Origin: Deltaproteobacteria bacterium
GTDB taxonomy: Bacteria; SAR324; NAC60-12
Length of the DNA stretch: 15,330 nt
Assembly (NCBI GenBank): GCA_002683785.1
Contig: NYUB01000042.1
Location: forward strand, 22,080 to 37,409
Direction of reading: 5' to 3'
A program made the translations under genes and the position numbers. Below the pieces are notes generated by a model. It did no database searches. It was not told where the DNA came from and saw only the letters and a program-made list of their open reading frames with translations. Below, piece by piece: positions 2,511 to 6,764 of the stretch. Each line of letters begins with the position of its first letter. Within the stretch, counting starts at the first letter, position 1.

Positions 2511-3017
2511 ATGAAAGATACTCCCAATGAAAAAGGTTTTTCTGTCAGCCTTTTCGTCAACAATAAACCCGGGGTTTTGGTCCGGATCGCTCAAACTTTT
2601 GCGCGAAGGGGTTACAACATCGACTCTTTGGTCGTATCAAGCGCTCATGACTCAAGATATTCTCGAATCACTGTAGTCTTCCAGGGGGATCATGAAAACG
2701 TGGACCAGATTCTTAGACAATTAAACAAACTGATTGACGTGGTCCATGCCGTCCAACATGGAACTGATACTTCTGTAGATCGGGAAATGACATTATTTAA
2801 GGTAGGAGTGAAACCCGACAAAAGGGCTGAGGTTTTTCAGATCATCGATGTTTTTCGTGCAAAAACGGTAGACATCACCGATGAATCGATCATCGTTGAA
2901 ACCACAGGAAGTTCCAACAAGATCGATGCATTGGAACGCATGTTGAGTTCCATCGGTTTGCTTGAGATGGTGCGGTCTGGAAAACTAATGATGGCCCGGG
3001 GGCTTGATCCCACCTGA
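2511..3017 (+). CDS. ilvN: Acetolactate synthase small regulatory subunit (ACT domain)
   Basis: 168-aa ORF. The N-terminal ACT-domain signature (SVSLFVNNKPGVLVRIAQTFARRGYNIDSLVV) and its length match IlvN/IlvH. It sits immediately downstream of ilvB on the same strand. Confidence 0.9.
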   Translation: MKDTPNEKGFSVSLFVNNKPGVLVRIAQTFARRGYNIDSLVVSSAHDSRYSRITVVFQGDHENVDQILRQLNKLIDVVHAVQHGTDTSVDREMTLFKVGVKPDKRAEVFQIIDVFRAKTVDITDESIIVETTGSSNKIDALERMLSSIGLLEMVRSGKLMMARGLDPT

Positions 3018-3020
3018 TTC

Positions 3021-3036
3021 AAAGGTAAGCCCCTTT
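3021..3036. terminator. Weak bidirectional hairpin between the convergent ilvN and peroxiredoxin genes
   Basis: AAAGG (3021..3025) pairs with CCTTT (3032..3036), with loop TAAGCC, and is followed by T residues on the + strand and A/T residues on the - strand. The stem is only 5 bp, so confidence is low. Confidence 0.25.
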
Positions 3037-3051
3037 TAGATTTAAAACTTT

Positions 3052-3510
3052 TCAGAACAACTGTCTGCAAATTTCTGCCAGCTCGTTTGCATAACGCCGG
3101 CCCCCAGGTTCCACAGCCTCGGAATAACGGACGATCCCCTGCTTGTCGATGATCACAGTCGAGCGAATGGAGTACCCCTTTTCTTCACTGTAAACCCCAT
3201 AAGCCTTTGCCATTTGTCCTTTGGGATGCCAGTCGCTGAGAAGCGGAAAGTTCACTCCTCCCAGGGAGACTGCCCAGTTTTTGTGGGAATGTTTGGTATC
3301 AATGCTTACACCCAGAACCTGGGTGTCGAGATCCTCAAAAAGCCCTAAATTGGCTTCCAGATCAGGGATCTCCTTGCTTCAGGTACCCGTCCAATCCAAG
3401 GGATAAAAAATCAGCATCACATTTTTGTGGCCCTGAAAATCAGAAAAGGAAACCACCCCATCAGAGGTTTCCAGCGAAAAATCAGGGGCCTGGCTACCAG
3501 TTTCAATCAT
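3052..3510 (-). CDS. Selenocysteine-containing peroxiredoxin of the BCP/PrxQ (AhpC/TSA) family. The in-frame TGA at 3379..3381 (codon 44) is predicted to encode Sec at the peroxidatic position.
   Basis: The minus strand from ATG 3510 to TGA 3052 is a single 153-codon frame whose only interruption is one TGA. The conceptual product is MIETGSQAPDFSLETSDGVVSFSDFQGHKNVMLIFYPLDWTGT-U-SKEIPDLEANLGLFEDLDTQVLGVSIDTKHSHKNWAVSLGGVNFPLLSDWHPKGQMAKAYGVYSEEKGYSIRSTVIIDKQGIVRYSEAVEPGGRRYANELAEICRQLF. The TGA falls exactly where Prx proteins carry the peroxidatic Cys of the PxxxTxxC motif (compare BCP FYPKDDTPGC-TTE). Both halves show peroxiredoxin-fold conservation (APDF..L, GISxDxxxSHKxW, FPLLSD, AYGV). 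The ORF track reports only the 67-aa C-terminal fragment 3052..3255. Confidence 0.72.
3343..3367 (-). promoter_or_regulatory. Candidate bacterial SECIS-like mRNA hairpin starting 11 nt downstream of the UGA
   Basis: The mRNA reads UGA-AGCAAGGAGAU-CCCUGAUCUGGAAGCCAAUUUAGGG. CCCUGA pairs with UUAGGG (6 bp including one G-U pair). An internal loop is followed by an upper UGG/CCA stem with an AAG apical loop. Total length is 25 nt, beginning 11 nt after the UGA, which is the canonical spacing of the E. coli fdhF-type SECIS. Confidence 0.35.
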
Positions 3511-3679
3511 ATCCAACTTTTTGAAATTGTATTAATTTTGAACAATGAATGTTGAAGAAGCATTAGCATTCCTTAAGCATGGGGGATTTGCAAGATTTCC
3601 TAAAGGCATAGTTCCTACCAATCAAAACAATAGGAAAAAACAATTGGATCTGTATTTTTTCAATCGTTACGATAATGCT

Positions 3680-3694
3680 GAACTGAATCAGTTC
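3680..3694. promoter_or_regulatory. Perfect 7-1-7 palindrome GAACTGA-A-TCAGTTC, a candidate operator overlapping the rbr promoter/TSS
   Basis: Read directly from the sequence. It lies 4 nt downstream of a GATAAT -10-like hexamer (3671..3676) and 33 nt upstream of the rbr ATG. The 7-1-7 architecture matches the arrangement of Fur/PerR-family boxes, although the half-site sequence differs. Confidence 0.35.
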
Positions 3695-3726
3695 GATTAA
3701 ATCATCATTCCATTAAAAGGAGTCAA

Positions 3727-4146
3727 ATGCCTGAATTAAAAGGAACTCAAACCCACCAAAATTTAAAAGATGCTTTTGCCGGTGAATCCCAAGCCAACCG
3801 TCGCTATCTCTATTATGCAAAGCAGGCAGATGTCGAAGGATATCCGGAAATTGCTTCAAATTTCAGGGAAACTGCTGAAGGAGAGACCGGTCATGCACAT
3901 GGCCACCTGGATTACATCAAACAAGTTGGCGATCCTGCCAATGGCATGCCCATTGGAGAATCTACCGACAACTTGAAGGCTGCCATCGCCGGTGAAACTC
4001 ATGAATATACTGACATGTATCCTGGAATGGCAAAAACCGCACGTGATGAGGGCTTCAATGAAATTGCTGACTGGTTCGAAACCCTGGCAAAAGCGGAAAA
4101 ATCTCACGCCGGACGTTTTCAGCAAATGCTCGATACCATCAGCTGA
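3727..4146 (+). CDS. rbr: Rubrerythrin-family diiron peroxidase lacking the C-terminal rubredoxin domain (sulerythrin-like, 139 aa)
   Basis: All rubrerythrin diiron ligands appear in the expected spacing: E20 (ESQANRRY), E53xxH56 (EGETGHAH), E94xxE97 (GETHEY), E128xxH131 (AEKSHAG). No CxxC...CxxC rubredoxin module is present. A strong AAGGAG ribosome-binding site lies 4 nt before the ATG. Confidence 0.85.
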
Positions 4147-4261: not shown

Positions 4262-5620
4262 ATGGAGGCCAAAAAGGACCGGATCTCGTATCTTCCAAGC
4301 AATGGAATGAGTTATGACCCGGAAGAACCCAAGTACTGGGACAGTAGTGCCCTGAAGCAGGAAATTGATCGTGCTTATGAAATCTGCCATGGATGCCGCA
4401 TGTGTTTCAAATACTGCGATTCCTTTCCCAACCTCTTCAAATTGTTGGACGAGCAGTATGACGGGAAAGTTTCAGAATTGAAGGACATGGATATTGAACA
4501 TGTGATGGATGCCTGTTTTCAATGCAAACTATGTGAAGTTCAATGCCCCTACACGCCCCGAGACGGTCATGAGTTTCAGCTCGATTTTCCCAAGCTGGTC
4601 CACCGCTACAATGCCCAAAAAGCAAAGACACGAGAAAAGCCCTTACGCGACCGGGTTCTGGGAAACCCCGATGGGAGCGCGAAGCTGGCCCGCATGTCCT
4701 TCGGAATGGCGAACAAGATGAATCGTGTCAAAATCCATAGGGTTTTAATGGAAAAGGTACTCGGCATCCACCGTGACAAGGATCTTCCAGATTTCTGTGC
4801 GCAAACCTTTGAAAAACAGGCAGAATCCAAAGGCATGATTTCCAAGGAAAATCCAGAAACCGTATTGTTCCAAACCTGTTACGTTCAGAACAACGAACCT
4901 GAAATCGGGTTTGACACCCTCGAAGTTCTCAAACACAACGAGGTGGAATGTGGATGTGTCAAGGGCCTTCAATGCTGCGGCATGCCTTCATGGGAACAGG
5001 GAGATCTGGAAAGCCTGCGGAAACAGGCGAAGCATAATCTGGATCTGCTCATGCCTCACGTGAACCGAGGCTCGAAAATCCTCGCACTCAACCCGACCTG
5101 CTCCATGATGATGAAACGGGAATATTCTGAGTTGCTGGAGGGCAATGACCGTGAATCTGCACAAAAGCTCGCAGAAGCGGTTCAAAACCCAACAGAATAC
5201 CTCTGGGATATCCGTAAAGAGGAACGTTTTAAACGAGATTTCAAAAGCACACCTGGTCAAAAGGTCGCGTACCATGCCCCATGCCATCTGCGTACGCAAG
5301 GAGCCGGATTTCGAGGCAGAGATCTGTTGAAACTGATTCCAGATCTTAAACCTCAGTTGACCATGGAATGCTGTGGGCATGATGGAACGTATGCGATGAA
5401 AACCGAGTCCTTCGAAGCCTCGATCCGGATTGGAGAAAAAGCATTCAGCAGCATGAAAAACACCGGTGCCGAAGTCTGGGCTACCGACTGTCCACTGGCA
5501 GCAATTCAGTTTGGCCAGCATGCCGGAAGAAAACCGATGCATCCGATGAGCATCCTCGCAAGGGCTTATCAGGAGGATGGATTTCCAACCAAAATAGAGC
5601 CTTCGGAAAATAAAGAATGA
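4262..5620 (+). CDS. Iron-sulfur oxidoreductase with an N-terminal 2x[4Fe-4S] ferredoxin domain and two C-terminal CCG cysteine-rich domains (HdrD / GlpC / LutA-like)
   Basis: 452 aa. There are two CxxCxxCxxxCP motifs (CHGCRMCFKYCDSFP; CFQCKLCEVQCPYTP). Two CCG motifs follow (ECGCVKGLQCCGMP; MECCGHDGTY). An AAGG ribosome-binding site lies 8 nt upstream. The stop overlaps the next gene's start in an ATGA arrangement. Confidence 0.85.
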   Translation: MEAKKDRISYLPSNGMSYDPEEPKYWDSSALKQEIDRAYEICHGCRMCFKYCDSFPNLFKLLDEQYDGKVSELKDMDIEHVMDACFQCKLCEVQCPYTPRDGHEFQLDFPKLVHRYNAQKAKTREKPLRDRVLGNPDGSAKLARMSFGMANKMNRVKIHRVLMEKVLGIHRDKDLPDFCAQTFEKQAESKGMISKENPETVLFQTCYVQNNEPEIGFDTLEVLKHNEVECGCVKGLQCCGMPSWEQGDLESLRKQAKHNLDLLMPHVNRGSKILALNPTCSMMMKREYSELLEGNDRESAQKLAEAVQNPTEYLWDIRKEERFKRDFKSTPGQKVAYHAPCHLRTQGAGFRGRDLLKLIPDLKPQLTMECCGHDGTYAMKTESFEASIRIGEKAFSSMKNTGAEVWATDCPLAAIQFGQHAGRKPMHPMSILARAYQEDGFPTKIEPSENKE

Positions 5621-6171
5621 AACCTGTCCAACGTGAAGAAATCCTGGATTACGTCACCTATGGTGAAAAGAGGAATGAAATCCAGCTTTCGGTCTTGAAG
5701 CAAAAAGAACCAAGAAGAATCCATCTCGGAGAATACCTGACCTTCCTTTTCGAAAACACGGAAACGATCCGTTACCAGATTCAGGAAATGATGCGGGTCG
5801 AACAGATCGTCAAGGAAGAGGCGATCCAGCATGAAATAAAAACCTACAACGAATTGATTGGTGAGGAAGGAGAACTCGGATGCGTGCTCCTGATCGAAAT
5901 TGCAGATGCTCAAATCCGACCACAGAAACTCCGAGAATGGCTGGGACTTCAGGAAAAAATTTACCTGGTCCTCGATTCAGGAGAACGGGTTTATGCCGAG
6001 TGGGATAAACGTCAGATCGATGATGAAAAACTATCTTCGGTACAGTATCTCAAATTTGACACTTCAGGCAGAACACCCAAAGGGATTGGTGTGGATCATC
6101 CCGAATTGAAGTGCGAAATGGATCTGTCCAAGGAACAAAGAGGAGCCCTGAACCACGATCTTCAGGGATAA
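5617..6171 (+). CDS. DUF3501-like protein (uncharacterised family usually encoded next to HdrD/GlpC-like Fe-S proteins); family assignment from memory
   Basis: 184-aa ORF translationally coupled (ATGA overlap) to the upstream CCG-domain Fe-S protein. Its size and the conserved-looking core (LGCVLLIEIADAQIRPQKLREWLGLQEKIYLVLDSGERVYAEWD) fit my recollection of DUF3501. An HMM search is needed to confirm. Confidence 0.6.
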   Translation: MKPVQREEILDYVTYGEKRNEIQLSVLKQKEPRRIHLGEYLTFLFENTETIRYQIQEMMRVEQIVKEEAIQHEIKTYNELIGEEGELGCVLLIEIADAQIRPQKLREWLGLQEKIYLVLDSGERVYAEWDKRQIDDEKLSSVQYLKFDTSGRTPKGIGVDHPELKCEMDLSKEQRGALNHDLQG

Positions 6172-6179
6172 ATTATTGG

Positions 6180-6764
6180 TCAGGGTTTCAACAGAAGATT
6201 CACCGTCTCAATCATTTCAGGTGTGTCAACTTTGCTGCTGAACATTTTCCGAATCCTAGCCTTACGGTCCATCAGGTAGACGTAACCGGTGTGGGTTACA
6301 AGGTAACCGATCGCCGACTTGTTCACTTCATCCTTCATGAAAAAAGAACCAAACTTTTTGGCAACCTGCTGCACTTCCTCAAAGGGCGCGTGCAATCCTA
6401 CAAATCCAGGATTGAAGAATTCCAGATAGGTTTTCATCTTCTCCAGACTGTCACGTTCAGGATCGACACTGATAAACAGAACCTGGATCAGCTCGTTTTT
6501 TGGATCCAGTTTTTGAACAGCCTGCTTGATCACGGTCAACGTTGTAGGGCAAACGTCTGGACAGGACGTATAACCAAAATAGATAAGCAGTAGTTTCCCC
6601 TCAAAATCCTTAAGGCTGACGGTCTTTCCGAGAGTGCTATCCATCTCAAAGTCGCCTCCGAGGGTATCATAAACCGGAAGGACTTCCGCTTGGAGCATCC
6701 CTAACCGGCAACCGAATATAAAAAGAAACAGGAACGTGGGCAGGAATGGGTGCTTCTTCAGCAT
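6180..6764 (-). CDS. sco1: SCO1/SenC family copper chaperone (thioredoxin-fold, cytochrome c oxidase CuA assembly), with N-terminal signal/anchor
   Basis: 194 aa with a hydrophobic N-terminus. It carries the hallmark CxxxCP motif (YFGYTSCPDVCPTTL) and a conserved downstream His (GYLVTHTGYVYLMD). Confidence 0.85.
   Translation of the reverse strand: MLKKHPFLPTFLFLFIFGCRLGMLQAEVLPVYDTLGGDFEMDSTLGKTVSLKDFEGKLLLIYFGYTSCPDVCPTTLTVIKQAVQKLDPKNELIQVLFISVDPERDSLEKMKTYLEFFNPGFVGLHAPFEEVQQVAKKFGSFFMKDEVNKSAIGYLVTHTGYVYLMDRKARIRKMFSSKVDTPEMIETVNLLLKP

Follow-up and report, generated by a model that had tools for sequence, protein, structure and literature searches.

The window analysed here, a stretch of 15,330 nucleotides from a SAR324 'Deltaproteobacteria bacterium' (assembly GCA_002683785.1, contig NYUB01000042.1, positions 22,080 to 37,409), carries on its reverse strand a peroxiredoxin (Prx) gene, here called prxU, whose reading frame contains an in-frame UGA. 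On one side ilvN converges on prxU, 34 bp past the prxU stop, and on the other a rubrerythrin gene is oriented divergently and is followed by genes for an iron-sulfur protein and a DUF3501 protein (Table 1). From the ATG at 3510 to the TGA at 3054..3052 the reverse strand forms one frame of 152 sense codons plus the stop, and the sole interruption of this frame is the TGA at 3381..3379, codon 44, in the context FYPLDWTGT-U-SKEIPDL. The initial annotation had described the same frame, which came out unchanged when we re-read it, and had predicted that the UGA encodes selenocysteine (Sec) at the peroxidatic Cys (Cp) position of a BCP/PrxQ-type Prx. We find that prxU is very probably a genuine, functional (predicted) Sec-peroxiredoxin gene, and that its product belongs to another Prx subfamily.

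As the initial annotation expected, the prxU translation with U replaced by C is recognised by the Pfam profile AhpC-TSA (PF00578), which matches residues 5-129, spanning the UGA, with 127.4 bits (E 3.8e-37) against a gathering cut-off of 26. Among PDB sequences, the best match is AhpE of Mycobacterium tuberculosis (Rv2238c; 7.7e-32, residues 1-139), whose peroxidatic Cys aligns to the UGA of prxU; the matches to proteins of the Prx1/AhpC type (4.8e-21) and to Bcp (2e-16 or weaker) are weaker. The fold is likewise AhpE-like. An AlphaFold model of P0001, a database protein that is 96% identical to the prxU product and carries W at site 44, has a predicted local distance difference test score (pLDDT) of 94.8, and in a PDB fold search ranks 1-12 are all AhpE, with template modelling (TM) scores of 0.91-0.93 and a root-mean-square deviation of ~1.3 Å over the full length, before Bcp4 appears at rank 13. 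Three NCBIfam subfamily models were tried and rejected: the prxU product reaches 52.2 bits with the E. coli-type BCP model (NF006960; cut-off 140), 50.1 with the Deinococcus PrxQ model (NF053650; cut-off 260) and 86.2 with the PrxU equivalog model (NF040737; cut-off 270), the last match covering only positions 35-185 of a profile of 233. Because of the PDB sequence ranking, the scores below the NCBIfam cut-offs and the fold matches, the prxU product is assigned to the AhpE-like subfamily and not to BCP/PrxQ, so that the subtype proposed in the initial annotation has to be replaced.

Upon examination of the active site, we noticed that P37 and R116 never vary across the three protein alignments (A1, A2 and A6). 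T41 is fixed within the Sec clade (alignment A2), and some Cys-type rows have Ser at this site. The active-site Arg has an established catalytic role in the Prx family. All prxU orthologues also keep the start MIE(T/V)G. Together, P37, T41 and U44 form the PxxxTxxU motif that has been described for Sec-peroxiredoxins (PMC13188914, PMC1088965). In two Sec-type loci, L122 and L139, Val replaces the otherwise invariant Pro of this motif (FYVLDWTAT-U).

Homologues of prxU fall into two types according to their Cp codon. Across 154 classified loci, this codon is TGA in 66, TGC in 85 and TGT in 3, and the 88 Cys-type homologues all carry Cys at the position aligned to the prxU UGA. Together with the alignment to AhpE, this pairing places the UGA where the PxxxTxxC motif has its peroxidatic Cys, as the initial annotation had proposed. 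The TGA-type loci range from 46 to 97% amino acid identity to the window protein. When one genome per GTDB species was scanned, orthologues were recovered in five metagenome-assembled genomes (MAGs) labelled SAR324 or 'Deltaproteobacteria' (59-63% identity), with TGA at the same codon in all five, and a metagenome scan added many further TGA-type loci. Within the species of the window, six of six environmental contigs keep both the TGA and the frame. The gene is under purifying selection on either side of the UGA: measured against the orthologues in L089 and L090, whose products are 84-86% identical to that of prxU at a synonymous divergence (dS) of ~0.9-1.6, the ratio of nonsynonymous to synonymous divergence (omega) lies at 0.07-0.08 in the N-terminal part (43 codons, up to the UGA) and at 0.05-0.07 in the C-terminal part (the remaining 108 codons). 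The conservation without decay that the initial annotation had seen in the motifs flanking the UGA is thus borne out, and no further disabling lesions were found. Finally, a scan of 42 SAR324-type loci for TGA read-through recovered prxU alone; the other candidates were ordinary stops followed by junk.

Two observations concern variation among these sequences. Between the window and seven environmental contigs of the same species (L082-L088), prxU differs by three nonsynonymous changes (G55E, A103T and I147F) and by zero synonymous ones. The 156-residue protein P0031 has a Cys-type N-terminal half (FHPLAFTPVC) and a C-terminal half identical to the Sec-type orthologue in L001, which makes it a chimeric assembly or else a Cys/Sec recombinant.

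Downstream of the UGA, where the initial annotation had suggested looking for a bacterial selenocysteine insertion sequence (bSECIS), the prxU mRNA folds into a SECIS-like hairpin that runs from +10 to +54, with a lower stem of GAGAUCC paired with GGAUCUC and an upper stem of GGAAGCC paired with GGCUUUU. A hairpin folds downstream of the UGA in all 51 unique Sec-type sequences. Compared with dinucleotide shuffles, the 48-nt segment from +10 to +57 has a mean z of -2.59 in the Sec-type sequences (n=51; 88% below -1) and of 0.04 in the homologous segment of Cys-type sequences (n=85); the p-values of this comparison are inflated by relatedness, and the evidence lies in the contrast with the controls. 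In the window, the segment reaches a z of -3.56, no other 48-nt stretch of prxU being as stable, and a 67-nt fold that includes the UGA has a z of only -0.9. Because a bacterial SECIS sits inside coding sequence, we also randomised synonymous codons, keeping the amino acid sequence fixed and drawing codons by each gene's own usage. The Sec forms then show a mean z of -2.35 at the post-UGA site (90% below -1), against -0.30 and -0.32 at two other sites of the same genes and -0.29 for the Cys forms at the same site; the window hairpin has a z of -3.38, and none of 60 randomisations was as stable. The hairpin, in other words, is under synonymous-site selection. The apical loops of the 51 Sec-type sequences start 22-34 nt past the UGA (median 28) and are 3-13 nt long, a start and a size that fall in the range of the bSECISearch model. 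Taken with the TGA/Cys pairing across 154 loci and the omega of 0.05-0.08, the hairpin lends strong support to the core of the initial annotation, a Sec-peroxiredoxin. One of the within-species replacements, G55E (GGG to GAG), affects the upper SECIS stem in its 3' arm, beside the apical loop, and the hairpin is weaker in the other strains (-16.3 kcal/mol) than in the window (-19.4 kcal/mol).

Several results weigh against reading the UGA as Sec. The literature on bacterial SECIS elements emphasises a small apical loop with a G, and a G is present in the apical loop of only 38 of the 51 Sec-type sequences. RNAalifold returned no global pairs for the 51 codon-aligned, gap-free post-UGA segments; one marine subclade yielded an 8-bp consensus with just 2 compensatory pairs, and a mixed subclade yielded no consensus structure. 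The lack of global covariation arises from a displacement of the stem register, by a few nucleotides, from one subclade to another, and selection appears to act for a hairpin at this place rather than for fixed pairs; per-sequence thermodynamic tests, controlled by Cys homologues, by other positions within each gene and by synonymous randomisation, accordingly took the place of covariation. Rfam gave no match to a bacterial SECIS family, either in the whole window at the gathering threshold or around the UGA at E<=10, and returned chance miRNA hits only. As for the Sec machinery, ARAGORN detected no tRNA of any kind, and hence no tRNA-Sec, in the window and 12 SAR324 loci, a contig walk by window proteins met no sel gene within the ~10-kb flanks on each side of the window, and tblastn with approximate probes for E. 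coli SelA and SelD found no match in 170 loci (1.96 Mb), although of the host genome itself these searches covered ~35 kb, a negligible sample whose empty result carries no information. In 2016, the SAR324 single-cell genomes AAA001-C10 and AAA240-J09 were listed as 'orphan SelD' genomes in which neither other Sec components nor selenoproteins were detected (PMC5029168). Selenium in the prxU product is, moreover, a prediction from nucleotide sequence. The conserved prxU in SAR324 MAGs suggests, however, that the SelD of SAR324 serves Sec synthesis and is not an orphan, and that the single-cell genomes are incomplete or the Sec-Prx gene was missed in them.

One alternative is that the UGA is read without Sec. 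Hairpins 3' of stop codons can stimulate read-through generally, and a near-cognate or suppressor tRNA might, with the aid of the hairpin, insert Cys or Trp at codon 44, which would suit a lineage without SelA and SelB. The SAR324 single-cell genomes reported with SelD only (PMC5029168) and the absence of visible Sec machinery from the window, its ~10-kb flanks and the 170 loci agree with this explanation, but SAR324 does possess SelD, and these single-cell genomes are not complete. Further, the UGA coincides with the catalytic Cys position of a thiol peroxidase and is matched by Cys codons in 88 homologues, the classic Sec/Cys signature. Insertion of Trp would kill the enzyme, yet omega stays at 0.05-0.08; were Cys inserted, a one-base change to TGC or TGT would suffice, yet TGA is kept in 66 loci. 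The clade has also been accepted as a selenoprotein in two surveys (PMC1088965, PMC2398784). We therefore regard decoding without Sec as quite improbable.

A pseudogene, or an assembly or sequencing error in a Cys-peroxiredoxin gene, would explain why gene callers return fragments only, and TGA is indeed one base away from both TGC and TGT. Such an origin is hard to reconcile with an identical TGA that is seen in six independent same-species contigs and in loci that extend down to 46% identity, and its recurrence in five distinct GTDB species and many metagenomes is not that of one clonal artefact. The hairpin, in addition, is under synonymous-site selection in the TGA forms only, and the low omega on both sides is obtained at near-saturated dS in a gene with no other lesions. 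Since omega is low on both sides and the TGA recurs in the six same-species contigs, decay or error is excluded for practical purposes, the chance left to it being very remote. ENA-derived predictions such as P0001 and P0016, which carry W44, could instead point to a variant genetic code (table 4 or 25) that reads TGA as sense. But TGA terminates 13 of the 15 window genes, prxU included, and does so where homologues predict the end, which excludes such a code; no other window gene needs TGA read-through, and the W apparently arose when genes were called on short contigs. The probability that remains for a recoded genome is practically nil. In our judgement, the probability is about 0.9 that 3510..3052 on the reverse strand encodes a 152-residue AhpE-like Sec-peroxiredoxin of marine SAR324 in which UGA44 specifies the peroxidatic Sec; it is chiefly the question of the Sec machinery that keeps this figure from being higher.

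Table 1. Features of the prxU locus, in coordinates of the window.
Feature	Position	Strand	Remarks
prxU, AhpE-like peroxiredoxin gene	3052..3510	-	152 codons including one predicted Sec codon; stop TGA 3054..3052
In-frame UGA, codon 44	3379..3381	-	predicted Sec at the peroxidatic (Cp) position; aligned TGA in 66 loci
Active-site loop P37-L-D-W-T41-G-T-U44 (PxxxTxxU)	3379..3402	-	read from the translation
Arg116 codon, conserved peroxiredoxin active-site Arg	3163..3165	-	invariant column in alignments A1, A2 and A6
Cys148 codon, C-terminal helix (AEIC-RQLF)	3067..3069	-	candidate resolving Cys, proposed from the sequence
Tryptic peptide across residue 44			NVMLIFYPLDWTGT-U-SK
bSECIS-like mRNA hairpin	3328..3372	-	nt +10 to +54 from the U of the UGA; minimum free energy -19.4 kcal/mol
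Hairpin apical loop AAUUUAG	3345..3351	-	starts 27 nt past the UGA; one G
prxU-rubrerythrin divergent spacer	3511..3726	.	weak promoter-like hexamers for prxU 3555..3526; open reading frame 3545..3700 (+)
Aerobic-type rubrerythrin without rubredoxin domain	3727..4146	+	divergent from prxU; Pfam Rubrerythrin 4.6e-31; PMC5114695
GlpC/HdrD-like CCG iron-sulfur protein (RFO)	4262..5620	+	GlpC model 259.8 bits vs cut-off 278; Pfam CCG 5.4e-14; PMC5114695
DUF3501 protein, third gene of the rubrerythrin cluster	5617..6171	+	DUF3501 3.8e-50
SCO1/SenC copper-chaperone-like thioredoxin-fold protein	6180..6764	-	right after DUF3501; signal/lipoprotein-like N-terminus

The genes that lie divergently from prxU make up the published cluster 'aerobic-type rubrerythrin - RFO - DUF3501' (PMC5114695). 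Of 50 eligible Sec-type loci, 19 have members of this cluster no more than 6 kb from prxU, vs 2 of 79 Cys-type loci, and at least three orientations relative to prxU occur: divergent, convergent, and same-strand with the cluster upstream. The linkage is found in the window and in L001, L002, L003, L094, L096, L104, L111-L115, L117 and L135, and our literature search found no description of an association of this cluster with a Sec-Prx. The divergent pairing of prxU with the rubrerythrin/RFO/DUF3501 genes suggests a peroxide-defence locus. The SCO1/SenC-like gene that follows DUF3501 adds a further redox protein to the locus. The spacer between prxU and the rubrerythrin gene is conserved only inside the window's subclade and holds no conserved palindrome. 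Its two promoter-like sites do not differ significantly from the 1.1 expected by chance, and consensus scans for promoters and terminators around prxU did no better than on shuffles. Public pipelines call a 51-residue open reading frame (ORF) in the spacer that has no Pfam or NCBIfam match and is probably spurious.

A second recurrent partner lies on the other side of the gene. Of 51 eligible Sec-type loci, 39 have a glutaredoxin (Grx)-like gene directly 3' of prxU on the same strand (for example L003:10545-10775, L004:1393-1626 and L001:6871-7101, with ~36 more loci), compared with 0 of 82 Cys-type loci. The Grx-like genes encode ~78 residues, match Pfam Glutaredoxin at 1e-7 to 1e-8 and have the active site CxxS in 40 cases and CxxC in 9, and P0075, from the same clade, is a Prx-Grx fusion protein. 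No Grx-like gene lies 3' of prxU in the window (3017..3052) or in its subclade (L088-L090 and L092), which has either lost the gene or moved it. The Sec-type proteins differ from the Cys-type ones at their C-terminus as well: a Cys occurs within the last 16 residues in 43 of 63 Sec-type genes, mostly as AEC[QK]K and as C148 in the window, vs 0 of 88 Cys-type genes. Both features bear on a 1-Cys mechanism of the AhpE type, which dispenses with a resolving Cys and relies for recycling on a glutaredoxin-like protein and a low-molecular-weight thiol: C148 might serve as a resolving Cys, and the Grx-like partner is frequent among relatives yet missing beside the window gene.

From these data we infer how Sec would be inserted, how the enzyme would turn over and what would reduce it. 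By the standard bacterial mechanism, the hairpin from +10 to +54 would recruit SelB with Sec-tRNA(Sec), and the ribosome would add Sec where it would otherwise terminate. The selenolate of U44, held in the PxxxTxxU pocket with Arg116, would then reduce H2O2 or organic hydroperoxides and be converted to a selenenic acid. A thiol would resolve the selenenic acid, with C148 and glutathione as candidates, and a monothiol Grx-like protein, of the kind encoded 3' of prxU in most relatives and not in the window, may carry out the final reduction. AhpE is recycled by the glutaredoxin-like mycoredoxin-1 together with mycothiol, and the proposed cycle of U44, C148, glutathione and Grx is drawn by analogy with that system. 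The linkage to the rubrerythrin cluster invites a wider and rather unlikely proposal, namely that the Sec-Prx forms one arm of a selenium-dependent peroxide-defence module in which electrons arrive through RFO and DUF3501, and RFO, as a (selenenyl)disulfide reductase, recycles the Prx directly or via the Grx-like protein and serves rubrerythrin too. If this were true, the recycling of the Sec-Prx would be the first concrete biochemical role for DUF3501/RFO, and SAR324, earlier an 'orphan SelD' lineage, would be a genuine Sec user.

The initial annotation had warned that ORF calling would lose the gene, and so it does. The ORF list of the window holds just a 67-residue C-terminal piece (3052..3255). 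Public pipelines split the gene into a 43-residue AhpC-TSA N-terminal fragment that ends at the UGA, sometimes accompanied by a C-terminal fragment of 53 or 67 residues. Other database proteins carry W at position 44, namely P0001, P0006, P0008, P0013, P0016 (551 member sequences) and P0028. We inspected the underlying DNA codon for two of these entries and found TGA in both: L081 is the contig of P0001, and the product of L004 equals P0013 apart from the W. The W44 entries are apparently short contigs translated with a table in which TGA encodes Trp, and they disguise a selenoprotein as an ordinary protein with a dead active site. Most public catalogues hold the gene split or mistranslated (W in place of U), which biases tallies of peroxiredoxins and of selenium use in SAR324. 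It is mainly as an annotation case that prxU matters, the gene in question being that of a conserved antioxidant enzyme of an abundant ocean bacterium.

The distribution of the locus also revises its ecological setting. Seven window proteins match, residue for residue, proteins of NCBI MAGs named 'SAR324 cluster bacterium' or 'Deltaproteobacteria bacterium' (MAA89657 onwards, HJO453xx), of Tara Oceans and of JGI marine metagenomes, and the recovered contigs that carry the prxU locus reach 119 kb. The host is a pelagic marine SAR324 bacterium and not a classical anaerobe, and the framing of the initial annotation, which had drawn its parallels from anaerobes, does not apply. The gene indicates that Sec-dependent peroxide removal very probably takes place in a lineage of the oxygenated water column, not in anaerobes alone.

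Among characterised enzymes, the nearest relative of the prxU product is the 1-Cys AhpE of M. tuberculosis (Rv2238c), which defines the subfamily. The two resemble each other in size (153 residues in AhpE) and in the position of Cp, and they are 46% identical over 139 aligned residues, with Sec in place of Cys at Cp. The clade-specific C-terminal Cys of the prxU product is missing from actinobacterial AhpE, and because the host of prxU is not actinobacterial, mycothiol is not expected in it. AhpE has a glutaredoxin-like partner, as do most relatives in the Sec clade, and none is encoded adjacent to prxU in the window. BCP/PrxQ proteins share with the prxU product the architecture of a thioredoxin-fold peroxidase, a PxxxTxxC-type site and a similar length, but the PDB matches to Bcp are ~15 orders of magnitude weaker than that to AhpE. 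According to PMC13188914, which cites Sohling et al. 2001, the first Sec-peroxiredoxin to be shown biochemically was PrxU of Eubacterium (Peptoclostridium) acidaminophilum. With this PrxU, the window gene shares a peroxidatic Sec in an AhpC/TSA fold and the principle of recoding; PrxU, however, belongs to another subfamily, is longer (its model has 233 positions) and comes from a strict anaerobe, and the window gene is not its equivalog.

The closest counterparts of prxU come from the sea. Prx (TxxU, pfam00578) is an established and abundant marine Sec-peroxiredoxin family (Zhang, Fomenko & Gladyshev 2005, PMC1088965; Zhang & Gladyshev 2008, PMC2398784), with 253 genes in the Global Ocean Sampling (GOS) data (PMC2398784). 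In the supplement of the earlier survey, the Sargasso contig AACY01104450 reads MLFFYPLDWTVTuSKEIPDLEANLGLFKDLDTQVLGVS...AEICKKVL (PMC1088965); it is 83% identical to the prxU product over 121 residues and has its u at the same position. In the supplement of the later survey, the GOS read JCVI_READ_941135 begins MIETGSQAPDF...FYPLDWTGTUSKEIPDLEANLGLF, and JCVI_READ_738385 likewise begins MIETGSQAPDF...FYPLDWTGTUSKEIPDL (PMC2398784). Because its orthologues are listed there as Sec-Prx, the orthologous group of prxU is already known since 2005-2008: motif, domain and post-UGA hairpin agree, and the surveyed sequences and the window gene form the same group. The two surveys filed this group under COG1225 (Bcp), whereas its nearest characterised relative is AhpE. 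Their entries are unassigned reads or short contigs, whereas prxU is seen in a 15-kb context, with an assignment to SAR324 and with ilvBN and the rubrerythrin/RFO/DUF3501 genes as neighbours. It is this genomic context and the SAR324 assignment that are new for prxU, and the existing picture of selenoproteins is unchanged by them; the near-universal monothiol Grx-like partner gene and the recurrent linkage to rubrerythrin/RFO/DUF3501 are modest additions that offer leads on how the enzyme is recycled.

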